A stretch of DNA of 38,468 nucleotides from NCBI GenBank assembly GCA_004297315.1, contig SCTU01000244.1, forward strand, positions 1 to 38,468, written 5' to 3'. A program made the position numbers and the translations under genes. The notes under the pieces were generated by a model. It worked only from the letters and a program-made list of their open reading frames with translations. It ran no database searches and was not told the origin of the DNA. Source of the DNA: Dehalococcoidia bacterium. GTDB taxonomy: Bacteria; Chloroflexota; Dehalococcoidia; UBA2979. Positions 1 through 23,687 of the stretch are shown here, piece by piece (positions within the stretch are counted from its first letter, which is position 1; each line of letters opens with the position of its first letter).

Positions 1-377
1 ACCTCGCCACCGACCCGGTCGAGGACTCCTCGCCCGGCACGCAGCCGGCCGTCGCCGAGGCCTACGCCGCCACGGCCCCGGCCGTCCCCGCCGCGCCGGT
101 CGCCGCCCCCGTCGCCTGGATGGCCCCGCCCGCGCTCTCGGCGTCGACGCCCGCGCCGGCCTCCGCCCCCGCGTACTCCTCGACGGTGGCGGTCGCGGTG
201 ACGTCAACGACCACGACAGCGGCCGGGGAGGTCCGCTCAGCCGCCTCGCTCTACGCCGAAGCCCGTCAGAAGGGCTACGAGGGCGACCCCTGCGGCGACT
301 GCGGCCAGCTGATGCTGGTCCGCAACGGCACCTGCCTCAAGTGCATGAACTGCGGCGCGACGAGTGGCTGTAGCTAG
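1..377 (+). CDS. nrdJ: Class II (adenosylcobalamin-dependent) ribonucleotide reductase, C-terminal fragment; the 5' end lies outside the window
   Basis: Frame 3 is open from base 3 to the TAG at 375-377. An Ala/Pro-rich linker is followed by the tail GDPCGDCGQLMLVRNGTCLKCMNCGATSGCS, a 4-Cys zinc-ribbon tail I recognise from NrdJ-type reductases. Only the tail is visible, so the call rests on that motif. Confidence 0.6.
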   Translation, partial: LATDPVEDSSPGTQPAVAEAYAATAPAVPAAPVAAPVAWMAPPALSASTPAPASAPAYSSTVAVAVTSTTTTAAGEVRSAASLYAEARQKGYEGDPCGDCGQLMLVRNGTCLKCMNCGATSGCS

Positions 378-795
378 GAATCCCTTGGATGACTGGGGAT
401 CCGGGTCGCGCTGGAATCGTCCCGATCGGATGTTCGAGGTCGGTACGCCTGGCGTTTCTGATCTCCGTCGGATCATCCCGGGCGGGATGTCATCAAGCGA
501 CCTCGTGGTGAGCCACGGGTCACGGCCAGGCCGGGGCCCGTCCGAGCGGACAGGCGTTGGCGCGTTGGCTCTTCACGGAAACGGTACTCGGGGATGTGCT
601 ATTCCGGGTCCGCGATCGCCTGGCCGCCTCTGAAGATGCCGCAGAGCGGCGGGCGCAAGGGGGCATCGTGCCGGGAGCATTCGTCCAACTCAGGCGAAGC
701 GAAGGACAGCGGTAGCAGCCCCCGCGAGCTACGTCGTTCGCTGGCGAGATGCGTGCACGCTCCTGCGTCCTTGCGGGGTCGACCTACATCTCCAG

Positions 796-1593
796 TCACC
801 TCGGAGCACGGCCCGCCGCCTCCGTCAACCAGAACTCGACGAAGATCGTGCCGTCGAAATTCGCGCCGGCCGTGTGCCCCTGGTTTGGGAACTCCACATA
901 GACCGACTTCACGCCAGCCGCCCGGAGCGTCTCGTGAGTCGCCCGTACTTCCTGCTTCCAGCCCTCATCGAGGGCTCCAACGCCGTTGAACACCGCGCGA
1001 CCGGCCATGGCTGCCGTCAGCGCGGCGGCGTCCATGGGCGCCAGTACCCCCGGTGCCCCAAGCAGCGTGTCGAATCGCTGTGGCTCGCGGACCGCGAGGC
1101 CGAATGCCACGAGGCCACCGTTTGAGACGCCCGCCAGATGCGTCGCGGACGGGCGTCCGTAGCAGGCGATCACCTCGTCGATGATCCGGTACGTGCGGCC
1201 CGCCTCACTGATGTAGTCATCTTCAACAACGGTGTAGGGCAGCACCACGCGGAACTCATCGATGCCGCGCGCCTTCGAGAGGTAGTTCGTCCATATGCGC
1301 ATCGCCGAGTTCCGGCGTCCGCTCCCCCCGCCGAGAAACACGACTAACGGTGCGTCGGGACGGTCGGGCATCGGGTCACGGATGAAATATGGGGCCTCGC
1401 CGACGTCCTTGATCTCACGCAACTCCCCGGGGAGGGCGGCGCTGCATCCACCTGCTCGCTGGTCCGAGGCGGCGGTCGGGGTTGACGGCTCGGACGGAGC
1501 GGCTGTCGGGGCCGAGGTACCCACCACCGGGGGGTTCGAGGCATCCGTTGCTGAGGAGCATGCCGTCGTGAACAGCAAGGCCGCACACGCCAT
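796..1593 (-). CDS. Alpha/beta-fold serine hydrolase (esterase-like) lipoprotein
   Basis: The track ORF 796..2130 is credible only from the ATG at 1591-1593. The upstream part is Arg/Pro-rich and overlaps the neighbouring gene. The N-terminus MACAALLFTTAC carries a lipobox. Further motifs are PLVVFLGGGSG, the nucleophile elbow G-V-S-N-G (LAGVSNGG) and a C-terminal NQGHT His. An alternative GTG start at 1677 has an AAGGGA Shine-Dalgarno. Confidence 0.7.
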   Translation of the reverse strand: MACAALLFTTACSSATDASNPPVVGTSAPTAAPSEPSTPTAASDQRAGGCSAALPGELREIKDVGEAPYFIRDPMPDRPDAPLVVFLGGGSGRRNSAMRIWTNYLSKARGIDEFRVVLPYTVVEDDYISEAGRTYRIIDEVIACYGRPSATHLAGVSNGGLVAFGLAVREPQRFDTLLGAPGVLAPMDAAALTAAMAGRAVFNGVGALDEGWKQEVRATHETLRAAGVKSVYVEFPNQGHTAGANFDGTIFVEFWLTEAAGRAPR

Positions 1594-1697
1594 CGCGATC
1601 GCACGGGCGCCCTGGGATCGGCCAAGCCGCCACTGAACGGCGCCGCGGCCCCGAGTGAGAGGCGTCGCAAGGAACACGCATCCCTTTAAGTTGGGCT

Positions 1698-2543
1698 TCA
1701 ATTCGCGATGGTCCGTCTGAGGCGAAACGGTGATGCGCCTTTCCACTGACGCCGAGCGTGATTCGCGACATTGCCGACCAGCAATGCGGCTGGGAGGAAG
1801 TAGACGATGCCGGTGGTCATGAAGAGGAGATATCCGATGCCGGCAACCAGTGCGCCGTACCAGATCTGATCGAAATACCTCGTCGGGCTCGTCGGAGGGT
1901 CGTCGAGTATGTAGCAAGCGAAGAAGACAGCCATGTGCACATCGGATGCGCCGAAGACCTCGGCCACTCTGACAGGGTCGGGGCCGAAAGCGGTGACGGT
2001 AAACAGGCTGAAGTACGTGCCGAGGAACGCGAGGACCAGCGGAAGTTTGTTGACGTGGTCGACGATCCAGATGCCTGGAAGCAGGATCAGCACCATCCCC
2101 GAGGGCCCGTATGCGGAAAGGCCGCCCCACCAGCTCTCGCCCTGGCCGAACATCAGATGGACGGCTACGAGGCCGACGATCGCCGGATTGAAGACGTTCG
2201 TGGTGCCGCTCCGGATCAGGTGCTTGGATGTCACGCCGATCGCCGCAGCCGCTGCCAGAACGTACGCCGGTGCGTAGGGGTCGAGCACGAGCGCGATGAC
2301 CAAGCCCGTAAGCAGAGCGCCGCTCGGGAACTCCGGCGCGCGACGCCAGGCCGCACGCAGAAGCGCGTCTATGGCTACCGCGGTGACCGCAGCCGCCGCT
2401 ACTCCCGGCATCGTCACGCTGAGGCCAGTCGCCACGGAGCCAATCGCCACGATCGCCCCGATGAAGATCAGCATGTAGCCCTTGGGCGATCGCAGTACAT
2501 GTCGTGCCGTGTGCATGGCTTCCGCCGCGTATGCCGCGTTCAC
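1698..2543 (-). CDS. NqrB/RnfD-family-like polytopic membrane protein (stand-alone)
   Basis: The 281-aa product is hydrophobic throughout. The segment LTGLVIALVLDP...IGVTSKHLIRSGTTNVFNPAIVGLV resembles the conserved TGLLLA...K...G.N.FNPA core of NqrB/RnfD. No [ST]GA[ST] flavinylation motif is visible. The GTG start overlaps the apbE stop (GTGA at 2540-2543). Confidence 0.6.
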   Translation of the reverse strand: MNAAYAAEAMHTARHVLRSPKGYMLIFIGAIVAIGSVATGLSVTMPGVAAAAVTAVAIDALLRAAWRRAPEFPSGALLTGLVIALVLDPYAPAYVLAAAAAIGVTSKHLIRSGTTNVFNPAIVGLVAVHLMFGQGESWWGGLSAYGPSGMVLILLPGIWIVDHVNKLPLVLAFLGTYFSLFTVTAFGPDPVRVAEVFGASDVHMAVFFACYILDDPPTSPTRYFDQIWYGALVAGIGYLLFMTTGIVYFLPAALLVGNVANHARRQWKGASPFRLRRTIAN

Positions 2544-3442
2544 GGGGCAGACCTGTCCAGGCCCGGCGTCGCTGTCATCTCGAACGAAGGATCGATGAGT
2601 AACGCTTCGGCGTCGTAACGAGCAATCAGTGGTAGCGCCCGCGCTGGGCCGAGCACGCAGGCGGCTGTAGCGAGCGCATCCGCGAGCATGCCACTGGAGG
2701 CGACGACGGTTGCGCTGATCAGTCCGTGTGCAGACTGGCCGGTCACGGGATCAAGCAGATGATGTCCCTCAGCAACGTCGGGTTGGGTGCGGAGATAACT
2801 GCCCGACGTGCACACCGCCGCGTCTCTTACCTCGAGAACCCGACACGCTGTTGCCGGGTCGCGCGGGTCGCGGACCTGGATTGGCCACGACGGAAGACCT
2901 GGCGGCGCCCCACGGACCAGGAGGTCGCCCCCGGCAGCAATCATGTGATTCGGGAACTTGTGCAGTTCCTCGCTCGCAAGGTCGATCGCAAAGCCCTTCG
3001 CCACGGCTCCGAGGTCGAGCGTCATCGCGGTCTCCAACGTAACTTTGCGGCGCGGCACGTCGATTGAGATGTCTCGGTACGACGCCGTGGCCTGACGAGA
3101 TTGCGGTGAAGACTCGACGCCGTCGCGATAGCCGTATCGGAAGCCAGCACGGATCATCGCGTCGCCCACAGTTGGGTCGAAGGCCCCCTCGCTCGCCTCG
3201 GCCATTCCGATCGCGAACTGAAGCAGGCGGAAGAGCAACGGGCTGACGGCGACGGGCACCCAGACCGTCGCGGAAAGCCGTGCCAGTTCACTGTCGCGGT
3301 CGAATCGGTTGCACGTCGTCTCGACGAGGTGAAACCAGTTGAAGGCGCGCGAGATCGCCTCGCGCGCCTTGCCCATGTCGCCGGGCGGCCAGACCTCAAT
3401 CGTGACGCCAGTGTCCATGAAGATTCGAAGCTGCCTGATCAC
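2540..3442 (-). CDS. apbE: FAD:protein FMN transferase (ApbE family), with no recognisable signal peptide
   Basis: ApbE-type motifs are present: IFMDTGVTIEV (the MGT-type core start at residue 9), FDPTVG, DLGAVAKGFA, AAGGDL and CTSGSY. The GTG start overlaps the stop of the upstream FMN_bind gene (GTGA at 3439-3442). No in-frame start lies further upstream in the ORF track. Confidence 0.85.
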   Translation of the reverse strand: MIRQLRIFMDTGVTIEVWPPGDMGKAREAISRAFNWFHLVETTCNRFDRDSELARLSATVWVPVAVSPLLFRLLQFAIGMAEASEGAFDPTVGDAMIRAGFRYGYRDGVESSPQSRQATASYRDISIDVPRRKVTLETAMTLDLGAVAKGFAIDLASEELHKFPNHMIAAGGDLLVRGAPPGLPSWPIQVRDPRDPATACRVLEVRDAAVCTSGSYLRTQPDVAEGHHLLDPVTGQSAHGLISATVVASSGMLADALATAACVLGPARALPLIARYDAEALLIDPSFEMTATPGLDRSAP

Positions 3443-3981
3443 TTCGAGGCCTTGACCAACGCGTCACTCACGGCCCGCACGTAGGCGCTGCTGCTGTCCG
3501 TTGCGCCGGTAACCCTCGTCACATGCAGGAGGTCCTGGAGTTCGACGACCTGCTCCTCGAGCGGCGCGATGCGGTCGCAGGGATAGCGCGTCCCGCATTC
3601 CGTGATCTGCGCGCCGACGATGAGTCCGCCGGCGATCACGACCTCGACGTCCACCGTGCCGTGAGGGCCGCGGCCCGCGCCGGCGAAGGTCCCGTCACGG
3701 TACGGCGACGGGGTAGACAACGGCGGCGGCGTAGGGCGCAATCCCGGAGTCCCTGGTACCAAAGAGGGCGCGGTCTGCGATGTTGCGCTCGCGAGCCGCA
3801 CGATCGTGTCGAAGTCACGGCGATCGTCAATTGACCGAGTCTGCGTGTAGCCCGCCGCATACACAGCGAGGATGGCCGACGAACTCAGCGCAACCAGGGA
3901 AGGTGAGACCTTACGCCGGCGTCGCGAAGAGGGCCGTGCCACGGGTAGTCCTGTCATCCGGCAATCGAGCGCCGATGCCAA
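3439..3981 (-). CDS. Membrane-anchored FMN-binding-domain protein (predicted ApbE flavinylation substrate)
   Basis: The N-terminus has an Arg run plus a hydrophobic anchor (SSRRRRKVSPSLVALSSSAILAVYAAGY), followed by a Pro-rich linker. The FMN_bind-like core is YRDGTFAGAGRGPHGTVDVEVVIAGGLIVGAQI ... VTRVTGATDSSSAYVRAVSDAL. TGAT matches the [ST]GA[ST] flavinylation motif. An alternative ATG start is at 3957. Confidence 0.8.
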   Translation of the reverse strand: MASALDCRMTGLPVARPSSRRRRKVSPSLVALSSSAILAVYAAGYTQTRSIDDRRDFDTIVRLASATSQTAPSLVPGTPGLRPTPPPLSTPSPYRDGTFAGAGRGPHGTVDVEVVIAGGLIVGAQITECGTRYPCDRIAPLEEQVVELQDLLHVTRVTGATDSSSAYVRAVSDALVKASK

Positions 3982-4008
3982 GTCGCGAGTTGCTCTGGGG
4001 CCGCACCG

Positions 4009-4557
4009 CTAGGGCGCGACCACGGTCAGCGTGCCCTTCAGGTCGGGGTGCAGCGGGTCGCTGACCTGGTACGTCCCTGGAGCCAGGGCATAGAAATGCA
4101 CGACGTCTACCTGCGTGCCGGCAGCGTAGGCGTGGACCTCCTTGAGCGTGGGCTTAACGCCACGCGGCGACGTCCCGCGCCACGCGACGAAATCCTTCGC
4201 ATGATGCTTCTCATGATCTTCCTCGGTGACACCCTCCTCGCGGACCACGTCCTCCTCTTTGGCCGCGAGCCAGAGGATCTCGGTCGCATCGAGGCCCACA
4301 ACGCGATAATGGAACTCGTCAGCACTTCGGTTGCGGAGAATCAATTGGATGCTGGGCCCGGCGGGTATGCGTACATCAGCAGGTTCATAGCCTTTCTCAG
4401 AGACGTCGATGTTGACGGTCACCGCTTCCGCGTCCTCGTCCGGCCGGTACGTGCCATCTCCGCCCGCGCCACAGCTCACGGCGACGAGGGCGACCGCCCC
4501 GAGGAGCGCGACCGCAAACGTGCGCATGATCACCCGTCGTCGCGAGTCCATTGCCAT
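4009..4557 (-). CDS. Cupredoxin-fold-like lipoprotein lacking the copper-ligand Cys
   Basis: A lipobox is present (LVAVSCG). The pattern VTVNIDVSEKGYEPADVRIPAGPSIQLILRNRSADEFHY ... PGTYQVSDPLHPDLKGTLTVV follows the cupredoxin_1 layout (F.P..i.v.aG..v.l...N.....H ... pGtY.f.C...gH..GM.G.l.V). The Cys and the terminal Met positions are substituted. The insertion EEGVTEEDHEKHHAKDF is rich in His and Glu. The start could instead be the ATG at 4551, which has better spacing to GGGGAG. Confidence 0.55.
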   Translation of the reverse strand: MAMDSRRRVIMRTFAVALLGAVALVAVSCGAGGDGTYRPDEDAEAVTVNIDVSEKGYEPADVRIPAGPSIQLILRNRSADEFHYRVVGLDATEILWLAAKEEDVVREEGVTEEDHEKHHAKDFVAWRGTSPRGVKPTLKEVHAYAAGTQVDVVHFYALAPGTYQVSDPLHPDLKGTLTVVAP

Positions 4558-4565
4558 CTCCCCGC

Positions 4566-5039
4566 CTACGACTGCTTGCCGAGGACTGCGAGATAGGCGA
4601 CGACCGCCTTGATCTCGTCATCAGTCAATTTCACGATCGACATCATGCCGACGGTGGCGAGCGCTTTCCGGACCTGCTCTTCGTCGGCACCCCGGTTCGC
4701 CGGCGCTCCGATGCAGCTGCTGCCCTTGCCGTCCATCCCGTGGCAGGCTGCGCAGCCCACGCCACCTGCGGTCTTCTCAAAGATCTCCTTGCCCCGGACC
4801 AGCACTGCATCCGCAGCGGTTGCCGCGGCCGGGTCGCTTGGCACCGGTGCTGATGCGGCGGCGGCTCCGCCCGGCGCTACGGATAGTGCCGCGATTCCGC
4901 CGCCGGGCCCAGAACTCGCTGGCTGCGACGTTCCGTCCCGGGACGCGGAGGCTGCGCCACCGCAGGCCGTCGCGATCACCATCGCCGCGACCGCAATCAG
5001 TCCCGGGACGAGGATCCTGCGAGCTGTGTGATCCTTCAT
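4566..5039 (-). CDS. Lipoprotein-tethered class I c-type cytochrome
   Basis: A lipobox is present (VIATACGG), followed by an Ala/Ser/Pro-rich linker. The heme motif is CAACH in TAGGVGCAACHGMDGKG, with a candidate distal Met in VGMMSIVKLTDDEI. The ATG at 5037-5039 is preferred over the TTG at 5060. Confidence 0.85.
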   Translation of the reverse strand: MKDHTARRILVPGLIAVAAMVIATACGGAASASRDGTSQPASSGPGGGIAALSVAPGGAAAASAPVPSDPAAATAADAVLVRGKEIFEKTAGGVGCAACHGMDGKGSSCIGAPANRGADEEQVRKALATVGMMSIVKLTDDEIKAVVAYLAVLGKQS

Positions 5040-5097
5040 GTCGTGACTCTTACGCGTCAACGTCTGGGGCTGGCCGAAACGGAGTGCTGATGGCGCG

Positions 5098-5568
5098 CTA
5101 TTGCCCGCCCAAGGACTTCACGAAGGCAGCAACGGCCACGATCTCGTCCTCAGACAACTTGATGAATCCCATGACCGGTACGCCGCCCGCCAGGGCTGCA
5201 CGGATCCTCGAGATGTCGGCGCCTCGGATGTTCGGGGCACCGAGCTTGGCGGCTCCGTCACCGCGAGCTTCCATGCCATGACACATTTGGCAGCCGACGC
5301 CGCCGGCGGTCTGCTGGAAGATGATCTGGCCCTTCGCGATGAGGTCCTTCTCAGGGTCGCCCGTGGAGGCGGGGGCGGTCGCGGGAGCCGTCGTCGAGGT
5401 TACGGGCGCAGACGTGGTGGTCGCTGTCGCTGCCGTCGCTGCCGTCGCCGACGCCTTCACGCCTGCGCCTGCCGTCTCGGCACTCCCGCTGCAGGCGATG
5501 GCTAGGGCAGCCATCGATGCGACGAGGCCGAGCAGGAGTGCGCGCGCGGGCTTGGTGTACATCTTCAT
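5098..5568 (-). CDS. Lipoprotein-tethered class I c-type cytochrome (paralog of 4566..5039)
   Basis: A lipobox is present (LAIACSGS), followed by an Ala/Thr-rich linker. The heme motif is CQMCH in TAGGVGCQMCHGMEARG, with a candidate distal Met in VPVMGFIKLSEDEI. The heme domain aligns by eye along its whole length with the neighbouring cytochrome. Confidence 0.85.
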   Translation of the reverse strand: MKMYTKPARALLLGLVASMAALAIACSGSAETAGAGVKASATAATAATATTTSAPVTSTTAPATAPASTGDPEKDLIAKGQIIFQQTAGGVGCQMCHGMEARGDGAAKLGAPNIRGADISRIRAALAGGVPVMGFIKLSEDEIVAVAAFVKSLGGQ

Positions 5569-5686
5569 CGTTGTGGCCTTCTCTTCCTGGACGTTCGGTC
5601 GCCGCCGAAAGCCAGGTGCGCCCCAGTCCAGCGGGGACCGGGGCGCCCTGGGCTACTTGCTTATCTGACTACCCGCGCGGTGCCTC

Positions 5687-7344: not shown

Positions 7345-8013
7345 TTACCGACGCAGATACCCGCGTTGCACCGCCCACGCCACCACTTCCGCGCGATTGC
7401 GGAGATGCAGCTTGCCGAAGATGTTCTTCAGGTGGAAGTTCACCGTGTTCTCGGAGATGCCAAGCCTGAGCGCGACTTCGCGGGTGCGCCCACCACGCGC
7501 GACCTCCGTGAGGACGTCTCGCTCCCGGGGCGTGAGACCAGACTCTTGGGGTGCCCCGACCGCGGCGTTCGCCCTGCCGACGTGCGTGAATTCATTGAGG
7601 AGGTTGCGCGCCAGTCGTGGCGAAATCACGGGCTCACCACGGCGCATTTGCTCCACGAACTTCTCGAATTCGTCCTCGGCAAGGTCTTTGAGCAGATAGC
7701 CCTCAGCGCCGCTCTTCACGGCCTCGAACAGGTCCCCCTCGTCGTCCGAGACAGTGAGGATCACCACACGCACCGCAGGCCATTCGGCCTTGATCGCGCG
7801 GGTCGCCTCAAGCCCGTTCATGTCGGGCATGCGGATGTCCATGAAGACGACGTCCGGGTGCAGTTGACGCACTGCCTCCACAGCGGCCGCACCATCCGCT
7901 GCCTCGCCTACGACTTCGAATTGCCACGCACGGAGCAGGGAAGCGAGCCCCGCGCGGATGAGCGCGTGGTCATCCACGAGAAGGACGCGGAGCGCATGGG
8001 GAGGCTCGGTCAT
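7345..8013 (-). CDS. NarL/FixJ (LuxR-type HTH) family response regulator
   Basis: The receiver domain shows LLVDDH...VVFMDIRMPDMNGLE...ILTVSDD. The C-terminal LuxR HTH shows LTPRERDVLTEVARGGRTREVALRLGISENTVNFHLKNIFGKL. The ATG overlaps the kinase stop (ATGA at 8010-8013). Confidence 0.9.
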   Translation of the reverse strand: MTEPPHALRVLLVDDHALIRAGLASLLRAWQFEVVGEAADGAAAVEAVRQLHPDVVFMDIRMPDMNGLEATRAIKAEWPAVRVVILTVSDDEGDLFEAVKSGAEGYLLKDLAEDEFEKFVEQMRRGEPVISPRLARNLLNEFTHVGRANAAVGAPQESGLTPRERDVLTEVARGGRTREVALRLGISENTVNFHLKNIFGKLHLRNRAEVVAWAVQRGYLRR

Positions 8014-9881
8014 CGCTCAATCGGCATCCTGACCACGACGCGGGTCCCCCGCCCGACGTGGCTCTCGATATCGAAAGTGCCTCCGGCGGCCTGTGCGCGT
8101 TCTCGCATCATCTGCAAGCCGAACCGCGGTCGCCCAGTGGCGGGCAGGGCCTCCGGATCGAAGCCAGCGCCGTCGTCGCTGACCTCGACGACCAACGTGT
8201 CGCAGTCGACCGACAGCCTCGTCTGGACAGAGGTGGCGACGGCGTGCTGCCGGACATTACTGAGCGCCTGCTGCACGATACGGATCAACTGGATCTCGCA
8301 GGTGGGAGTGCGCCGGACGCGCTCCACCTCCGGCGCTACCTCCAATACTGCATCGATGCCGAACATCTCCCGGTACGAGGTGATGTACTCCGCGAGTGCC
8401 GCCGTGAAGCCTTGTTCGCCTGGGGCCGAGCGCAGCGCAAGGATGTTGTCGCGCACATCGGCATAGAGCGAGCGGGCCGCCGCGTCGAGGTGTCGCAACT
8501 CCTCGAGCGCCGTGACCGTATTTCCGCTGTCCAGCAGTTTGCGCACCGCCAGCACCTGCGTGTTCACATAGCCCAAGATCTGCCCCATGCCATCGTGCAT
8601 CTCGCGCGAGATGCGTTCGCGCTCCTGCATGATAGAGACTTCCTGGATCTTCCGGTGCAGGTTGGCATTCTCGACGGCTGGCGCGATCTGATCGCCAATC
8701 GCATCGAGCAGGCTCAACTCGGAACGCCGCGACATCGAAGACGCCTCACTGGCCGCCAGCACCATCACACCGACGGAGCTACCGCGGAAACACAGCGGGA
8801 CCGCACAGCACACGCGATATCCCCGCGCGGTGAGGGCGTCGTTGAAGTCGGGCTCGCCAGCGACTACGCGGATCGTCTTACCCGTCACCGTCGCCCGTCC
8901 CAGGAGCCCCTTGCCATGGGGCGAGTGGGTGATATCAAGGAGAGGCTCGTTGACAGCATCGGCGCGGCAGTGCAAGACCAGTCCGTCGCCGCTCGAAAGC
9001 CAGATTTCGCCTTCGTCTGCCCTCGTGAGCTTCGTGACCGCGCTCAGCGCGCGCGCGAGCACATCGTCCAGGTCCAGGGAGGAGGAGGTGGCTGCCTGCA
9101 CGTCGAGCAGTGCCGAGAGTTCGCGGTTCTGTGCGACCGAAGCGTCATACAGCTCTGCGTTGTGGATCGCTAACCCCAGATGCTGTCCCACGCCATGAAG
9201 AAAGGCGTAGTCGTCATCATCAAATCGGTACTCACGCCGATAGGCCACGACGACGATGCCGTTCACCGCCCCAGAACACATCAGAGGGACGCTCACCCCT
9301 GACATGATGCCCTCCTTCGTGGAGATCGCGCGGACATCGGGGTCGCTGAGCACGTTGCCGAATCGGACTGGCTGGCCGCTCCGGACGACTTCGGAAGCGA
9401 TCACGTCTTCCGCGAGTTTGGCACGCTGGATGCGCTGCATGACCGCCGGGGAGAACCCGCGGGAACCGATGGCTGTGTGCTCCTCCTCGTCAGCGAACAG
9501 ACGGCAAACAAGACTCGCGTCCGCCCCGGTCGCCGCGACGATCTGATCGAGCCCGCGCCCGACCGTGGTCGCCAGGTCAAGGTTCTCGGAGGTTGCCGCT
9601 GCCAGACGGTTGAGTGCCTCGATCTGCGCTGAGCGCTTCGCTGCACGCGCCTCGAAACGGGCGATCTGGCGGAAGACCGAAAGTGCAAAAAAGCCGGCGC
9701 CCGCGGTCACGAGAAGCAAGGTCACTACAAACCCGAGCGGGCTCCGCCAGAGGCTATCCGCCGTGCTTCGCTGGGCGAACTCCAGCAACATAATGAACGC
9801 AACCGGGGCCACGATCGTCGTCCAGCGCAGGCGGCGAAGCTCCGATGCAAGCTTCTGTTGCCGAGGCAGGGTGATTTCCAT
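8010..9881 (-). CDS. Sensor histidine kinase with 2 TM segments, two GAF domains, HisKA_3 and HATPase_c
   Basis: Two N-terminal hydrophobic segments are separated by a very short loop. Two GAF-like blocks are visible (LDLATTVGRGLDQIV... and LDLDDVLARALSAV...). The H-box is REMHDGMGQILGY and the ATPase motifs are LSNVRQHA, DDGAGF and GLQMMRERA. The ATG at 9879-9881 has a GGAGGG Shine-Dalgarno. The track's longer start at 9947 is less supported. Confidence 0.85.
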   Translation of the reverse strand: MEITLPRQQKLASELRRLRWTTIVAPVAFIMLLEFAQRSTADSLWRSPLGFVVTLLLVTAGAGFFALSVFRQIARFEARAAKRSAQIEALNRLAAATSENLDLATTVGRGLDQIVAATGADASLVCRLFADEEEHTAIGSRGFSPAVMQRIQRAKLAEDVIASEVVRSGQPVRFGNVLSDPDVRAISTKEGIMSGVSVPLMCSGAVNGIVVVAYRREYRFDDDDYAFLHGVGQHLGLAIHNAELYDASVAQNRELSALLDVQAATSSSLDLDDVLARALSAVTKLTRADEGEIWLSSGDGLVLHCRADAVNEPLLDITHSPHGKGLLGRATVTGKTIRVVAGEPDFNDALTARGYRVCCAVPLCFRGSSVGVMVLAASEASSMSRRSELSLLDAIGDQIAPAVENANLHRKIQEVSIMQERERISREMHDGMGQILGYVNTQVLAVRKLLDSGNTVTALEELRHLDAAARSLYADVRDNILALRSAPGEQGFTAALAEYITSYREMFGIDAVLEVAPEVERVRRTPTCEIQLIRIVQQALSNVRQHAVATSVQTRLSVDCDTLVVEVSDDGAGFDPEALPATGRPRFGLQMMRERAQAAGGTFDIESHVGRGTRVVVRMPIER

Positions 9882-10029
9882 CGATTCCCTCCGCCCGACT
9901 CTAGCAGGGAGCCACGACCGAGGCGCTACCAGTTCTTGTGGGTTCAACTCTGTGCCCGAGCCCTAGGCTCGTCAGTATCACGACGTGGCTCCATCCGAGG
10001 CACGTGCCGCAAGGCCAGGAGAAGAACCA

Positions 10030-10260
10030 ATGCGATCAGCCGTCTTGCGGTCCGCAGCGCGGATGGCAACTGTGATTGGCGTCGCCGCTCTTGCGGCGCT
10101 CGCCCGTCCAAGTGTCGTCCTGGCCCATGACGGGGAGGATAAGTCGCTTTCGCATGTGCTCCTCGATGTGGGTGTGTGGAGCCTCGGTGCGGTCGCAGTA
10201 CTCGGACTGCTCGTCGCGGTCCTCTGGCTGAGGGCTCGGCGACGAGGACTCGACACGTGA
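10030..10260 (+). CDS. Small secreted, C-terminally anchored protein (76 aa) whose mature end is predicted to begin HDGED
   Basis: The ATG at 10030 has AGGAG 8 nt upstream. The signal-peptide-like N-terminus is MRSAVLRSAARMATVIGVAALAALARPSVVLA|HDGEDKSLSH. A C-terminal TM segment (VWSLGAVAVLGLLVAVLWL) is followed by RARRR. The stop overlaps a possible GTG start of the next gene. Confidence 0.45.
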   Translation: MRSAVLRSAARMATVIGVAALAALARPSVVLAHDGEDKSLSHVLLDVGVWSLGAVAVLGLLVAVLWLRARRRGLDT

Positions 10261-18416: not shown

Positions 18417-19295
18417 CTACTTCGAAGCCTGTATCGACTCCAGGGGGAGGCGCACCGTGATCACGCAGCCCTGCCCCTCGATGCTCTCCACCCCGATGGC
18501 TCCGTGATGTGCCTCGGCAATCCGCAACGCCCCGCTCAGGCCAAGGCCAGTGCCCGGGATATCTGAGACGTTCTCAGCGCGATAGAAGCGGTTAAAGACG
18601 AACGGGAGCGCCGCGGCCGGGACTCCGATCCCTTCGTCGCGGACGGCGATGACCGCCCAACGGATATCCTGCTCAGCCTCGACGTGCAGCGAGGCGGTGA
18701 TCGTCCCGCCGTGCGGGCTGTACTTGATCGCGTTCCGCAGGATGTTGTCGAAGGCGTGCAGCAGCAGGCCGCGCTCGCCCAGCCCGACCAGCGCAGCCTC
18801 TTCCTTCACAACCACGAAGCGGTGCTGCACTGCGACCTGGCGGCAGTCTGCGATCGCCTCCTCGATGACCTCGGCAAAGTCGAGCGGGGAGAACTCCAGC
18901 GCCGGCACGGGCCGGGAGCGATCCGCGACCTCGAGGAATGCCGCGATCTCGCCGACGGCACGCGTGACCGCCTCGTCAGCGGCATGCATGTCCGCGGCCA
19001 GCCGTCCGAGCTCGATTGGACGGCCGCGGTCGATCCCTCGCAGGATGCGCTGCGAGAGCGCCTTCAGCACCGTCAGTGGGTTCAGCAGGTCATGCGCGAG
19101 TTGATCGATCTGCTCCTGCCGGAGCAGCACTGCGCGCTCCGCGCCGGACGGACCGGGCAACGCGATCGGGAATTGCTCGACCGCGGGGCCGCCCGCAGCC
19201 TCACCCAGGAGTATCGCGGCAACCTCTTGGTGCGGGCCGGACCGAGTGGATTGTTCGGTTGCCACGTTCGTGACTCCTTTCGGCACACGAACCAT
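18417..19295 (-). CDS. Soluble histidine kinase (HisKA + HATPase_c, no TM, no adjacent receiver)
   Basis: The H-box is IDQLAHDLLNPLTVL. The ATPase motifs are NILRNAIKYSP (N box), VRDEGIGVP (G1), FNRFYR (F) and GTGLGLS (G2). Confidence 0.85.
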   Translation of the reverse strand: MVRVPKGVTNVATEQSTRSGPHQEVAAILLGEAAGGPAVEQFPIALPGPSGAERAVLLRQEQIDQLAHDLLNPLTVLKALSQRILRGIDRGRPIELGRLAADMHAADEAVTRAVGEIAAFLEVADRSRPVPALEFSPLDFAEVIEEAIADCRQVAVQHRFVVVKEEAALVGLGERGLLLHAFDNILRNAIKYSPHGGTITASLHVEAEQDIRWAVIAVRDEGIGVPAAALPFVFNRFYRAENVSDIPGTGLGLSGALRIAEAHHGAIGVESIEGQGCVITVRLPLESIQASK

Positions 19296-19454
19296 AATGA
19301 ACTGGCAATCGTCACACGCGCGTCACACGTACACCCGCCCCGGGATGGATTTGCGATATCCGGCGTCAGAAGACTGAAGTCTGACGATGTTGTAAGCCCG
19401 CCGTCGGGCGGTGTTGGGTGCGGTGCTCCGCCCCAGGCGTCTCTCCGTCAGGAT

Positions 19455-20510
19455 CTAGAGCGTGCGGCGCAACTCGACGACGACACCTTTGATCTCGACA
19501 TCCAGAAGGGCGACTTCTTCATCGGCGTTGTCACTCCGCAACACGAGCTTGCCCTCTCGCGTCGCCAGACGTTTCACGATCCACGAGGAATTGTGCACGG
19601 CGACGACAATGCGGCCAGCCTCCAGTTCGACATCCTGGCTCACCATGAGCTTGTCCCCGTGGCGGATCGACGGCTCCATGCTGATCCCCAGGGCGGCGAC
19701 CTCGAACGCGCGCGTGTCTTCCCCGGCGACCGCCGTCTGAGCCTGGCGGATCACCGACGACCTGTCGGGGAGCCTGGTCGTGGGGGTCGTGACGATCGCC
19801 TGCAACTCCGCCGTCGGCTCCTCATGCATCTCCGCGCGCAATGCAGCACGGAACCGCTCAAACGTCGAACGTGCGGCGGTGTAGTCGCCCTGAGCCTGCT
19901 GCACGCGGATGAGCGCCGCATGGCCCGACTCGCGGAACGGCTCAGCGGCGATCACCAGGCCAGCCGCCTGCGCAGCGGTGGCAAACCGGCCCACGGATGT
20001 CAACTTTTCCGCCAGCGCCTCGAGCGCACGCAGGCGGAGTTCATGCCACCGAGCAGCCTCGTCCGCGGCCCAGTCGTCGTACCAATCGGGCAGCAATTCG
20101 GAGGAGAGCGCCGCGATGGCCGCCTGGCTGAGGTCGGAATCCCCCGAGTCGACATCCACGATGAGCAGACGGTTCGCCAGCGCGCGCGAGTCTCGTAGGT
20201 CCAGTTCGACGCCCTCCGCGAGGCTGAGGTCGAGCACGTTCACGCGCAGAGCGTTGCGGGTCGCCTCATCGAGTCGCGAGAGCAGCGTCCGCAGGCTTGC
20301 CCGAGCATGTGCTTCGGGCGCTTCGGGCCACAGCGTCCCGGCCACGACCGACCGCGGCACCGTCCGATCTCGGACGCCCAGGAACGCGACCAGCCGCTGC
20401 GAACTCCCCTGCAACGCCAGCGGGATCGCATCCGCAGTCAGTTCGAACGCACCAAGCAGGGACAATCGAAACTCCTCAGCCGTCCCTGAAGGTGACCGCG
20501 GGATGTACAT
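19455..20510 (-). CDS. SARP-type winged-helix + BTAD regulator fused to a C-terminal S24 (LexA/UmuD-like) peptidase domain
   Basis: The N-terminus FRLSLLGAFELTADAIPLALQGSSQRLVAFLGVRDRTVPRSVVAGTLWPE...LRTLLSRL is a SARP DNA-binding domain. The middle region LPDWYDDWAADEAARWHELRLRALEAL...AEPFRESGHAALIRVQQAQGDYTAARSTFERFRAALRAEMHEEP is a BTAD. The C-terminus GISMEPSIRHGDKLMV...GRIVVAV...WIVKRL...LVLRSDN...IKGVVVE carries the S24 Ser (SMEP) and Lys (VKRL) motifs. The ATG at 20508-20510 was chosen. Confidence 0.7.
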   Translation of the reverse strand: MYIPRSPSGTAEEFRLSLLGAFELTADAIPLALQGSSQRLVAFLGVRDRTVPRSVVAGTLWPEAPEAHARASLRTLLSRLDEATRNALRVNVLDLSLAEGVELDLRDSRALANRLLIVDVDSGDSDLSQAAIAALSSELLPDWYDDWAADEAARWHELRLRALEALAEKLTSVGRFATAAQAAGLVIAAEPFRESGHAALIRVQQAQGDYTAARSTFERFRAALRAEMHEEPTAELQAIVTTPTTRLPDRSSVIRQAQTAVAGEDTRAFEVAALGISMEPSIRHGDKLMVSQDVELEAGRIVVAVHNSSWIVKRLATREGKLVLRSDNADEEVALLDVEIKGVVVELRRTL

Positions 20511-20693
20511 CGACCGCTCTGGGCGGGGGCTTCCGGCAGGAGATGGGGCCAAGCGTTCCTCAGTACTCTGACGCCTCGCGGCCTCCACATTCGACGCTGC
20601 GGCCTGCGCAGAGGGGGCCAGGACACGTGGGCATTGTACGCGACGGAGCGGTCGAGGCCGAGGCGAGGGGTACGGCAGAATACACTCGACTGC

Positions 20694-20894
20694 ATGGACC
20701 AAGCACGCGTGCGCTGGTGGTCGGTGGCCGCGGGGGTGCTCCTCGCACTCACGGGCAGCGTGTGGGCGCTGCAGGGTGTGGGCGTGCTCGGCGGCAGCAC
20801 AATGAGTGGTAACTCAACGTGGACCGTGATCGGCATCGCCGTCGCAGTCGCGGGCGCCCTGCTCGCCTGGCGTGGGGCCGCGCGCGGGCGATGA
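20694..20894 (+). CDS. Small two-TM membrane protein (66 aa)
   Basis: The product is MDQARVRWWSVAAGVLLALTGSVWALQGVGVLGG...WTVIGIAVAVAGALLAW. The stop overlaps the next start (ATGA at 20891-20894). Confidence 0.5.
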   Translation: MDQARVRWWSVAAGVLLALTGSVWALQGVGVLGGSTMSGNSTWTVIGIAVAVAGALLAWRGAARGR

Positions 20895-21262
20895 GGGCTG
20901 CGGCTCGCCTCGCCCTGCTCGCCGGCGCGGCCCTCGCGCCACTGGCAGCGTGCGGCGGGACGGCGTCAGCGCCTGACGCATCGTCTACCACGCACCGGCT
21001 CACACCCGACGAGGTGACACGACGGTTCACGGAGTGGGCCTGCCCGGGACGCCCGGAACTCGCGACTCCGCTGACGCGTCTCACGCCGCTCGCCGTCGAC
21101 CCGGAGTCGCAGCCGCTTTCGCAGGGCGGCAGGTGGATCGTGTTCACCTCGGCGGGGTCGGTCGGATACCGCGAGTCGACCGGCGCGTTCGAGCCCTCCG
21201 AGCCGGCGGCTGCCTCGGTCCGCGCGCTCCAGGACAGCGCCGAGTGCCGGACTGCTCGCTAG
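20891..21262 (+). CDS. Hypothetical lipoprotein (123 aa)
   Basis: MRAAARLALLAGAALAPLAACGG is a signal peptide with a lipobox. The gene is translationally coupled to the preceding small membrane protein. No family is recognised. Confidence 0.55.
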   Translation: MRAAARLALLAGAALAPLAACGGTASAPDASSTTHRLTPDEVTRRFTEWACPGRPELATPLTRLTPLAVDPESQPLSQGGRWIVFTSAGSVGYRESTGAFEPSEPAAASVRALQDSAECRTAR

Positions 21263-21771
21263 CGCGCGGCTGTGGTGGCCTCGCGGATGGCGTCGCGGAG
21301 GAAGCGCAGGGCGTGCGTCGTGAACTCGACCATGTTGGCGCCACGGTCGGAGAGGCCGGTCTCAACGGTGGTCGTGCGCGACACGGGGCCGGCGACGCCG
21401 ATGGTGGTGCGCCCGGCCTGCGCGACGCGAGCACTGGGCGGCCCAGCGATGCCTGACTCGGAGACGCACCAGGTGGTCCCGAGCCGCTCGCGCATCGACT
21501 CGGCGAGCGAAGCGATAATCTCGGTGGTGGTGCCTCGATAGTTCGCGTACTGCTCGGGGGACACGCCGGCGAGGCCCGTACGCGACTTGAGCGTGTACAC
21601 CACGCCTCCGCCGACGTAGTACTTCGACGCCCCCGCGACCCAGAGCAGCGCCGCCGAGACCAACCCGCCGGTCGTCGCCTCCGCGACCGAGACCGTTTCG
21701 CCACGCTCGGTGAGCAACGCCGCGATCTCCTGCGCGATGCTCTCCTGTTCGGTGTTGAGGAACCCGACCAT
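21259..21771 (-). CDS. CinA C-terminal domain protein (PncC-like nicotinamide-nucleotide amidohydrolase family)
   Basis: IAQEIAALLTERGETVSVAEATTGGLVSAALL...GGGVVYT matches the CinA_C signature (AES.TGG...). Confidence 0.7.
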   Translation of the reverse strand: MVGFLNTEQESIAQEIAALLTERGETVSVAEATTGGLVSAALLWVAGASKYYVGGGVVYTLKSRTGLAGVSPEQYANYRGTTTEIIASLAESMRERLGTTWCVSESGIAGPPSARVAQAGRTTIGVAGPVSRTTTVETGLSDRGANMVEFTTHALRFLRDAIREATTAAR

Positions 21772-21919: not shown

Positions 21920-23687
21920 CTAGGCGAGCCAGAGCGTGTCGAACTTCTTGTCGTTGTAAGGCAACACGTGTGCGACGAAGCCCTGCACCTGCTTGTAGGC
22001 CGCGGTCTGGCCCATCGACCAGTAGTACATGGTCTTGCCCAGCGCTGGGAGCGAGACCTTCTGCAGGTCCTTCACGAGCTCCTTGCGCTTCGCCGTGTCA
22101 AGTTCCACGGACTGCTTGAGGTACGCCGCCTCGATCTCCGGGGTGGAGAGCTCCGAGTAGTTGCGCGGCGCGCCCTTGATGTAGAACTCGGCCCAGATCG
22201 CATCCGGGTCGTCCAGTGCCACACCGTGCACCCACGGCAGCAGGTCGAAGTCACGCTTGTTCACCCGGTCGTACGCGGCCGCAGTCTCCGCCGGGTCCTG
22301 CTTGACCTTCCAGCCGAAGGCCTTCTGCAACTGGTCGCCGGTGAATAAGCAGATGTCTTCATAGAAGGCCTGGCGGACGAGCAACGTGACGTTCAGGCCT
22401 TCCTTCACGCCCGCCGCGTCCATCATCTTCTTCGCCTCGGCCACCGCGTTCGGGCCCTGCGGCTCGTAACCGGGAATCTTGCGGATGTCGGCCTCGGGCA
22501 GGGCCCAGTCGCCGCCCGGCAGCAGATAGCCGCCGATCACGGCCTCGCCTTTCGCCACGACCTTGATCGCGTCCTCGCGGATGATCGCGAGGTTCACCGC
22601 TCGACGGACACGTTCGTCGTTCCACGGCGCCTTCGAGGTGTTGTAGTTCAACACTGAGAAGCCCAGCGAGGAGCGGCGGTAATAGTTGGCCTTGTCGCCG
22701 ATCGCCTTCTTCAGCGACTCGGACGAGCCAGCCGACAACCCTGCGATCTGCAACTGGCCCGCCTGCAGCGCGGAGTCACGCGAGGCCTCCTGCGGCATCA
22801 GGTAGATGTCGAGGCCGTCGAGGTAGGGGCGCCCCTTGACGTGGTAGTCCTTGTTGCGCTCCATCGTGATCTTGACGCCGCGCTCGTACTTCATGTCGCG
22901 GTACGGGCCGGTGCCGTTGGCCTTGTTCTTCCAGTTCGAACTTGTCGTTCGCGATGTCCTTCTGGGCGTAGATCGACATCCAGCCCTGGCCCACGATCGG
23001 CAGCATCGAGAGCGGCGACGAGGGCCGGGACATGTTCAGCTTCAGCGTGAGGTCGTCCGGCGTCTCCATGCTCTTGATGACCTTGAGCTGGTCACCGCGC
23101 GGCGGGGTCAGACCCTTTGGCGGTGTGATCTGCCGCTGGAGGGATTCCTTCACGTCGCCGGCGACGAACGGCGTGCCGTCGTGGAACTTCACGCCCGCCT
23201 TCAGCTTGAAGGTGTAGGTGAGGCCGTCCTTCGATACCTCCCAGGACTCGGCGAGCTCCGGGATGATGCTCGTCGGCTTCTCGTCGCCGTCCTTGTAGTC
23301 AAAACTGACCAGCGTGTTGAACATCGGCGCGGAGGGCAGGTTCGCTACCGTCGACGATTGGCCGTGCTGGTCGAAGGACGGCGGGTCACTCGCCTGCGCC
23401 CGCGCGATGCGTCCGCCCTGCTTCGGCTGAGCCGCGGCCTGTGCGGTGGCCGTCCCCCCGGCGGGCGCTCCCCCGGTGCTGGTCGCAGCGGGCTTCTCAG
23501 CGGCCTTATCGCCGCCGCCGCAGCCGAGGAGCGCGGCGCCGGACAGACCAGCCGCCCCGATCGCCGCCCCGCGGAGTGCGCCGCGTCTGGTCAGCCTGTG
23601 TGAAGCCAGTGAAGTCCAATAGTTATCCGCCACCAGCAAGTTCCTCCTTGGTAGACCTGTGGACGCGGATGCCACGAGGTACCACAC
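21920..23687 (-). pseudogene. ABC transporter substrate-binding protein, family 5 (peptide/nickel type), interrupted by a 1-nt frameshift
   Basis: Track ORFs 22776..23687 and 21920..22894 are the N- and C-terminal parts of one SBP_bac_5-type protein in different frames. The N-terminal part carries a Tat-like signal plus lipobox (LTRRGALRGAAIGAAGLSGAALLGCGG). Its reading frame stays sensible through ...SIYAQKDIANDKFE. The other frame then reads NWKNKANGTGPYRDMKYERGVKITMERNKDYHVKGRPYLDGL. The frame junction is at about 22933-22941 (aagttcgaactgg on the minus strand). Confidence 0.8.

Follow-up and report, generated by a model that had tools for sequence, protein, structure and literature searches.

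Self-cleavage by S24 peptidases is the textbook route by which bacteria destroy repressors (LexA, phage cI) or mature UmuD, and the question arises what such a domain would do on a transcriptional activator. The question is raised by a reverse-strand gene (19455-20510) on contig SCTU01000244.1 of a Dehalococcoidia bacterium (assembly GCA_004297315.1), whose analysed stretch of 38,468 nt is referred to here as the window. Its product, SARP-S24, is a SARP regulator, i.e. a winged helix plus a bacterial transcriptional activation domain (BTAD), joined to a C-terminal Peptidase_S24 domain. Our answer, tentative and a little short of probable, is that of a proteolysis-gated activator: judging from the sequence, SARP-S24 may turn on the promoter of an adjoining histidine kinase gene and be switched by S24 cleavage at the Ala262-Gly263 bond.

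Domain architecture of SARP-S24

The initial annotation had read three modules directly from the translation, and all of them are present. Counted from ATG 20510 the coding sequence (19455..20510, minus strand, stop included) specifies 351 amino acids (aa), in which Pfam recognises BTAD (PF03704) between residues 128 and 239 (E 2.4e-14; score 54 bits, cutoff 22) and Peptidase_S24 (PF00717), predicted earlier for the C-terminal part, between residues 263 and 345 (E 2.5e-13; score 50 bits, cutoff 23). The N-terminal winged helix gave no match to Pfam Trans_reg_C and was recognised by other means. A phmmer search of the PDB sequences, with E values of about 1e-3, related residues 13-238 to the SARP part of AfsR and the stretch 13-116 to EmbR, and the AlphaFold2 (AF2) model, with a mean predicted local distance difference test score (pLDDT) of 87.9 and values >90 over residues 11-240, displays at its N-terminus the OmpR-type layout of two beta strands, helices alpha1-alpha3 and a wing hairpin. 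Foldseek matched this model to the AfsR SARP structures 8k60/8hvr (250 columns, E 1e-10, target TM-score (TMt) 0.73) and also to EmbR (2fez), whereas its C-terminal 90 residues matched the C-domain of Mycobacterium (Mtb) LexA (6a2q, TMt 0.74-0.75) and UmuD' (1ay9/1umu, 0.62-0.65).

On the minus strand of the window these modules follow one another as the winged-helix DNA-binding domain (20202..20474, residues 13-103), the BTAD, all-helical in the AF2 model (19785..20201, residues 104-242), a segment at 19719..19784 made up of a variable linker (residues 243-251) and the putative cleavage-site strand SSVIRQAQTAVAGE (residues 251-264, alignment A1), and a minimal Peptidase_S24 core, here termed mini-S24 (19458..19718, residues 265-351). 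The codons of the putative scissile bond, Ala262-Gly263, lie at 19722..19727 (P3-P2-P1/P1'-P2' = A-V-A/G-E), and those of the putative catalytic dyad at 19680-19682 (Ser277) and 19572-19574 (Lys313). The intact dyad claimed in the initial annotation was borne out by the alignment, in which Ser277 (GISMEP) and Lys313 (WIVKRL) are the counterparts of LexA Ser119 and Lys156; they are 36 residues apart, the S24 family having its Ser nucleophile in G-x-S-M and its Lys general base in V-K-R/K-L at a spacing of about 37. Since the NCBIfam models of LexA (TIGR00498, 29 bits), UmuD (NF007621, 35 bits; cutoffs of about 110) and the NiSOD maturation protease were all matched below threshold, SARP-S24 is not an orthologue of any of these proteins.

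The minus-strand reading frame ending at 19455 is open as far as TTG 20702, the longest possible version of the gene. Because a ribosome-binding site (RBS) GAGGAA lies just upstream of TTG 20552, and because the 14 codons added by this start (20511..20552, LAPSPAGSPRPERS) resemble the N-termini of the homologues P0004-P0007 (alignment A1), TTG 20552 may be the real start, giving a protein of 365 aa.

Conservation and distribution of the fusion

A search of 5.8 billion proteins retrieved 26 clusters with the full-length BTAD+S24 architecture at 47-90% identity, drawn from independent assemblies (NCBI, ENA, JGI, Logan). All genome matches with the complete architecture are Chloroflexota metagenome-assembled genomes (MAGs) of Dehalococcoidia and Chloroflexia, every cluster with assigned taxonomy belongs to this phylum, and the family is rare, comprising a few dozen sequences exclusively from uncultured MAGs. 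The continuous fusion is kept across the 26 clusters, and the gene is thus not two open reading frames joined by a frameshift artefact, as had been considered at the outset. In a 22-sequence alignment (A1) Ser277, Lys313, Ala260, Ala262, Gly263 and Glu264 are all invariant, and linker residues 243-251 vary in sequence and in length through indels. The source annotations of the homologues speak merely of 'SARP family' or 'BTAD domain-containing' regulators, and full-text literature searches for the combination of SARP/BTAD with S24/LexA returned no relevant paper. The earlier suspicion that the architecture is uncharacterised therefore holds within the searched literature; both modules and the principle of an S24-gated regulator are well known.

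Another unusual SARP architecture was noticed, in which SARP relatives (P0065-P0067, P0079, P0085) are joined to an HxlR-type helix-turn-helix (HTH; PF01638), some of them from Actinobacteria (Marisediminicola, Galbitalea). Two further homologues, P0022 (L002 8001-8276; L numbers denote related loci and P numbers proteins) and P0014, carry N-terminal extensions of ~100 aa that look like read-through from the end of an acetyltransferase-like gene, and these are probably mis-called starts.

A minimal S24 module with a short tether

The sequence QTAVAGE precedes the catalytic serine in SARP-S24, with Ala262 15 and Gly263 14 residues ahead of Ser277. This is the LexA-like VAG/E site noticed in the initial annotation, which had also remarked correctly on its short distance from the serine. 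The arrangement is shared by all members of a clade of mini-S24 proteins, in 46 of 46 of which the AG pair stands 15 residues before the serine and the lysine 36 residues after it; the putative cleavage-site strand keeps the same register throughout, and the ~12 residues upstream of the site are conserved. P3 and P1 are Ala, P2 varies (V/A/L/M), and P1' is always Gly and P2' always Glu, a pattern that follows the Ala-x-Ala rule of Ser-Lys peptidases and suggests a segment behaving like a substrate. The sole member in which P1 Ala is replaced, by Pro (P0120), has also exchanged Ser for Thr and Trp310 for Arg.

In LexA, UmuD and lambda cI the cleavage site lies about 35 residues upstream of the serine, the family using an Ala-Gly or a Cys-Gly bond in a strand-loop-strand region, and the more distant S24 matches from our own search show spacings of 30-42 residues. 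The alignment accounts for the difference, LexA residues ~86-108 having no counterpart in mini-S24; in LexA this stretch makes up strand two of the cleavage-site hairpin as well as the connecting loop. Autoproteolysis in the S24 family is stimulated by activated RecA or by alkaline pH. Regarding a possible partner in cleavage, LexA F111, L113 and V153 and UmuD Y52, L54 and F94 form a pocket for F203 of RecA loop L2 (PMC9926225), and the equivalents F269, V271 and W310 of SARP-S24 are invariant or nearly so.

The module itself is of narrow distribution. A HMMER search of 1.84 billion cluster representatives with mini-S24 returned only nine proteins below E 1e-10, and the module occurs in three contexts: fused to a SARP, fused to an XRE-type HTH (P0089, P0106, P0110 and P0115, with an S24 part about 70% identical to that of SARP-S24) and as stand-alone proteins of 115-125 aa from the same phylum (P0126; L015 413-760; L016 5451-5828) which are likewise about 70% identical to it and, in the manner of a small UmuD, retain both the dyad and the TA(V/M)AGE site. 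Because it is found with a SARP, with an XRE-HTH and alone, mini-S24 behaves as a portable cassette shuffled within one phylum.

The partner histidine kinase and its repeat box

The initial annotation had placed SARP-S24 upstream of an orphan kinase and divergent from a pair of membrane protein and lipoprotein genes. The kinase turned out to be a conserved partner and the likely target, whereas the divergent pair is not conserved at related loci. The kinase gene (18417..19265, minus strand, likely start GTG 19265, RBS AAAGGAG at 19274-19280) encodes a sensor-less histidine kinase of 282 aa consisting of the DHp and CA domains only, with a clear Pfam match to HATPase_c (E 1e-24), a weak one to HisKA, and H, N, G1, F and G2 boxes conserved in an alignment with the partner kinases of other loci; its closest relatives form a small Dehalococcoidia group. 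The kinase lies downstream of SARP-S24 in the window, L002, L004/L005 and L007; in L001 a hybrid kinase-receiver precedes SARP-S24 with a 4-nt overlap, and in L034 the kinase is transcribed divergently from SARP-S24, with a receiver-only protein encoded after it. Three gene orders and at least six independent loci thus place a kinase next to SARP-S24. No kinase neighbours the BTAD-only paralogues P0042 and P0030.

Three side observations concern this protein. The receiver-only response regulator of L034 (2766-3185, 139 aa), directly after the partner kinase, is a possible phosphorelay partner; the L001 kinase has a receiver domain of its own. The unconserved N-terminal tails of the kinases contain AAGG-like strings (EAAGGP, GAAGGI, AAVGGA) ~25-35 residues ahead of the H-box in the window (residues about 20-27), L002 and L007, absent in L004/5, which in Ala/Gly-rich tails could be chance. 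Finally, the source given for P0184, a 190-aa fragment 91% identical to the window kinase, is a Lysobacteraceae/Xanthomonadaceae MAG; its 1.8-kb contig is probably mis-binned, the label being at odds with the Chloroflexota distribution.

The gap of 190 bp ahead of the kinase gene holds a putative SARP box, two 11-bp direct repeats (TGTGACGcgcg TGTGACGattg, 19306..19327, minus strand) recognised with a position weight matrix (PWM) and in the intergenic alignment A3, in which the GTSACG box is the sole conserved block; a -10-like hexamer, CATTAT (19294..19299, minus strand), follows 6 nt after the proximal repeat. The same layout of two to three GTSACG units 11 bp apart, 6 nt and then nAnnnT is found upstream of the kinase at eight loci, among them the window, L001, L002, L004/5/12, L007, L014, L032 and L034, the last two of which were left out of PWM construction. 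The pattern GTSAC-N6-GTSAC matches the window once, at this place, against a chance expectation of 0.25, and the count alone is not significant; the significance of the box lies in its position and its conservation. Its PWM score is 19.3, that of the runner-up site in the window 11.5. No -35 consensus accompanies the repeats, and a generic sigma-70 and terminator scan gave nothing useful on the gene strand. Published SARP boxes are heptameric direct repeats with an 11-bp spacing, overlapping the -35 region and bound by one protomer per repeat as a side-by-side dimer (PMC10936776; PMC10972967), with the proximal repeat of the afs box ending 6 nt ahead of the -10 (PMC10936776), a layout that the geometry of the candidate box matches. 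In the divergent region 20511-20693 a GTSAC repeat, which would have pointed to autoregulation or to control of the membrane-protein gene, was sought and none was found.

Since BTAD-only paralogues and L026 have this box as well, it is the candidate operator of the whole SARP clade, and we assign the kinase box to the S24-fused SARP by adjacency. Other repeats were observed in its surroundings. An imperfect inverted repeat, CGTCAGACTTCAGTCTTCTGACG, without a T-run, lies between the SARP-S24 stop codon and the box (19364-19386); it might serve as a second operator or form a structure resembling a terminator. At L002 7905-7925 the box is a perfect double CGTCACAAC. In L026 three high-scoring GTSACG tandem boxes (3500-4480), with no SARP gene in the 10 kb of the locus, stand before an XRE-S24 gene (P0120, with its degenerate site, Ser and Trp) and divergent small genes, with an SRAP gene nearby; this is a hint that the SARP and XRE-S24 systems are cross-regulated, perhaps as part of a mobile element.

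A proposed proteolysis-gated activator and its alternatives

How could these parts work together? The small SARP part (winged helix plus BTAD) would most likely bind as a side-by-side pair to the two repeats at 19306-19327, which would stand in for the -35 element ahead of the kinase gene, and this binding would turn the promoter on. The mini-S24 domain, through Ser277 and Lys313, would most likely dimerise the protein and cut the conserved Ala262-Gly263 bond, separating a complete small SARP (residues 1-262) from the S24 domain. The length of this fragment is close to that of natural small SARP paralogues, 239-260 aa. As to the sign of the effect, we lean slightly towards the logic of LexA and cI, in which the intact dimer would be the efficient activator and cleavage, possibly stimulated by activated RecA (RecA*), would lower the occupancy of the box and expose an A-x-A-COOH end, so that transcription of the kinase would be switched off. 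ClpX recognises the end of cleaved LexA, and the A-x-A-COOH end may likewise act as a degron. What the data show directly is the architecture and its conservation, the invariant dyad and AG site, the neighbouring kinase and the repeat box of SARP geometry; binding of the box by SARP-S24, the cleavage, its cis or trans mode, its trigger and the direction of its effect are what we infer.

Several points weigh against this gated activator. Small SARPs function without an extra dimerisation domain, and for this reason the loss of S24 need not inactivate SARP-S24. The tether from the AG pair to the serine is of 15 residues, about 20 fewer than is known of any characterised S24 autoprotease (~35 in LexA and UmuD), with 30-42 in distant S24 proteins. 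By our own geometric estimate this would leave the chain only 4-7 residues in which to turn back from the scissile bond and reach the beginning of the strand that leads to Ser277; because of this, canonical intramolecular docking of the site is doubtful, and intermolecular cleavage, as in UmuD, may be a serious option. AF2, whether run on the full protein or on the S24 module alone, places the TAVAG strand with a pLDDT of <50-60. The segment of LexA in which P89 and Q91 contact RecA after the scissile bond (PMC9926225) is deleted in SARP-S24. The same kind of box occurs near BTAD-only paralogues (L027, L029) and in the XRE-S24 locus L026, which has no SARP gene, and in L001 a BTAD-only SARP lies just upstream of the box, so that a paralogue could be the real box binder. 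Two SARP-S24 loci, L003 and L006, lack an adjacent kinase.

The alternative that survives best, unlikely as we take it to be, keeps the cleavage and reverses its sign, following UmuD. Full-length SARP-S24 would be a poor or auto-inhibited activator, and cleavage would irreversibly release an active small SARP that switches the kinase on, so that a proteolytic (stress) signal would emerge as phosphorelay output. In its favour, the product 1-262 has the length and the domains of a natural small SARP, cleavage in classical S24 systems switches a response on, and a kinase without an input domain would most sensibly be controlled through its abundance. The A-x-A-COOH end, which could be a degron as in LexA, speaks against it, and the order of box, kinase and SARP-S24 in L001 is compatible with either sign. 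The C-terminal additions of other SARPs, NOD/TPR in AfsR and FHA in EmbR, are regulatory gates (PMC10936776), which also speaks for this reversed sign.

Less probable still is that S24 does not cleave the protein that carries it, being instead a module for dimerisation or partner binding, with the TAVAGE strand conserved as a part of the fold or as an interface, or else a protease acting on other proteins only, such as the paralogous XRE-S24, the stand-alone mini-S24 or the kinase, through its N-terminal tail rich in Ala and Gly. The tether too short for canonical docking in cis and the strand that AF2 leaves undocked are what one would expect here; moreover, the trans-acting NiSOD maturation protease is among the best, sub-threshold, NCBIfam matches, UmuD cleaves intermolecularly (PMC9926225), and AAGG-like strings exist in the kinase tails of the window, L002 and L007. 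Set against this, Ser, Lys and A-x-A/G-E are invariant over 46 proteins with P2 free to vary, P0120 as the sole case of P1 loss has lost its nucleophile too, the dyad would be dispensable if the domain were only structural, and the kinase-tail motif is absent in L004/5.

It is improbable that box and kinase are run by a BTAD-only SARP paralogue, the adjacency of SARP-S24 reflecting co-regulation or shared ancestry. Such control would explain the same box at BTAD-only paralogue loci and in the SARP-less L026, and a BTAD-only SARP does adjoin the kinase in L001 and L032; the kinase, however, stands beside SARP-S24 in at least six independent loci with three gene orders, and the scanned open reading frames of the window include no other SARP gene. 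That the fusion itself is an artefact, two genes joined by an error of sequencing or assembly, has nothing for it beyond the rarity of the architecture and is effectively refuted by 26 clusters from independent assemblies with the same continuous architecture and with linker and site conserved.

The gated activator can also be extended, at the price of becoming a rather unlikely proposal in its full form, to a signalling device of the Chloroflexota in which the 15-residue tether of mini-S24 would force a non-canonical, probably intermolecular cleavage that is triggered by RecA* or stress and resets transcription of the kinase through release or destruction of the SARP. If this were true, a proteolytic DNA-damage signal would be wired directly into a two-component phosphorelay.

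Genomic surroundings

The window is an ordinary chromosomal region with genes for acyl-CoA dehydrogenases, CoA-transferases, an ABC transporter and CinA. An origin from a prophage or a defence island was considered and rejected, PADLOC finding nothing in the window, the matches to PHROGs going back only to the folds of S24 and the kinase, and the genes around it being metabolic. Divergent from SARP-S24 on the plus strand lie the genes of a 66-aa protein with two transmembrane segments (20694-20894) and of a 147-aa protein with a lipobox (LAAC; 20819-21262), overlapping by 76 nt. Neither matches a Pfam or PHROG family, and the pair was dropped as a part of the system for this reason and for its lack of conservation at related loci.

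Further away, two overlapping minus-strand reading frames each match part of a single SBP_bac_5 solute-binding protein, 21920-22894 covering profile positions 125-363 and 22776-23687 covering 2-93; a frameshift in the gene or an error of sequencing probably explains the split. A NarL-type two-component pair (7345-8013 and 8010-9947, minus strand), consisting of a REC+GerE regulator and a GAF-GAF-HisKA_3-HATPase kinase, is located 10 kb from SARP-S24 and has no apparent link with it. The competence/damage-inducible CinA and/or DinB_2 are encoded within a few kb of SARP-S24 in the window (21259-21771, minus strand), in L001 (13470-14623) and in L002 (11047-11652), a weak hint of a DNA-damage context. 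In L007, a Dehalococcoidia contig, SARP-S24 and the kinase are flanked (292-5579, 8425-10142) by a large serine recombinase, a 1089-aa unknown protein, an N6/N4 methylase and DUF2924/RAMA, a context that looks like a mobile element.

Significance and comparison with known systems

The interest of this locus lies in its activator setting, in the minimal geometry of its S24 module and in the conserved putative kinase target. An S24 domain on a class of activators that replaces the -35 contact would extend the logic of self-cleavage to positive control, and it would be the fourth kind of C-terminal gate in the SARP family after NOD/TPR, the LAL-type ATPase and FHA. With a single regulator, a box of 22 bp and a single kinase gene, the locus is compact, its minimal S24 module with a short tether poses a clear question of cis versus trans cleavage, and the whole points to a Chloroflexota SARP regulon unrelated to antibiotic clusters.

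LexA, lambda cI and related phage repressors are laid out like SARP-S24, with a DNA-binding part at the N-terminus, then a flexible linker, an A/G-E site and a C-terminal Ser-Lys S24 domain, and with LexA the likeness extends to the fold of the C-domain (TMt 0.75) and to the conserved hydrophobic pocket for RecA F203. The DNA-binding part of SARP-S24, in contrast, is that of an activator predicted to act on direct repeats at the -35 position, whereas LexA and cI are repressors of palindromic operators; SARP-S24 also lacks the cleavage-site hairpin (LexA ~86-108), with AG 15 and not ~35 residues from Ser, and its cleavage is putative.

On the other hand, the small SARPs (ActII-ORF4, RedD, DnrI) and the SARP domain of AfsR consist, like the N-terminal part of SARP-S24, of a winged helix and BTAD, and the afs box has, like the candidate operator described here, 11-bp direct repeats ending 6 nt ahead of the -10. 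SARP-S24 differs from them in belonging to Chloroflexota rather than Actinobacteria, in lying outside a biosynthetic gene cluster, in having a histidine kinase as its neighbour and likely target, and in carrying the C-terminal peptidase. A review of the family divides SARPs into small, medium and large ones and SARP-LAL, and a peptidase fusion goes unmentioned there (PMC10972967). EmbR of M. tuberculosis (2fez), a structural match, likewise combines a SARP with one small C-terminal signalling domain; it is gated reversibly by Ser/Thr phosphorylation via FHA, whereas a protease domain in SARP-S24 implies irreversible control.

UmuD, finally, is a stand-alone S24 protein cut intermolecularly to active UmuD' and has the same core fold (1ay9/1umu), a likeness strengthened by the stand-alone relatives of mini-S24 (P0126, L015, L016). 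In contrast to SARP-S24, it has a 24-residue arm, ~35 residues from site to Ser, and no DNA-binding domain; cleavage in trans in the style of UmuD would be a plausible way round the short tether of mini-S24.

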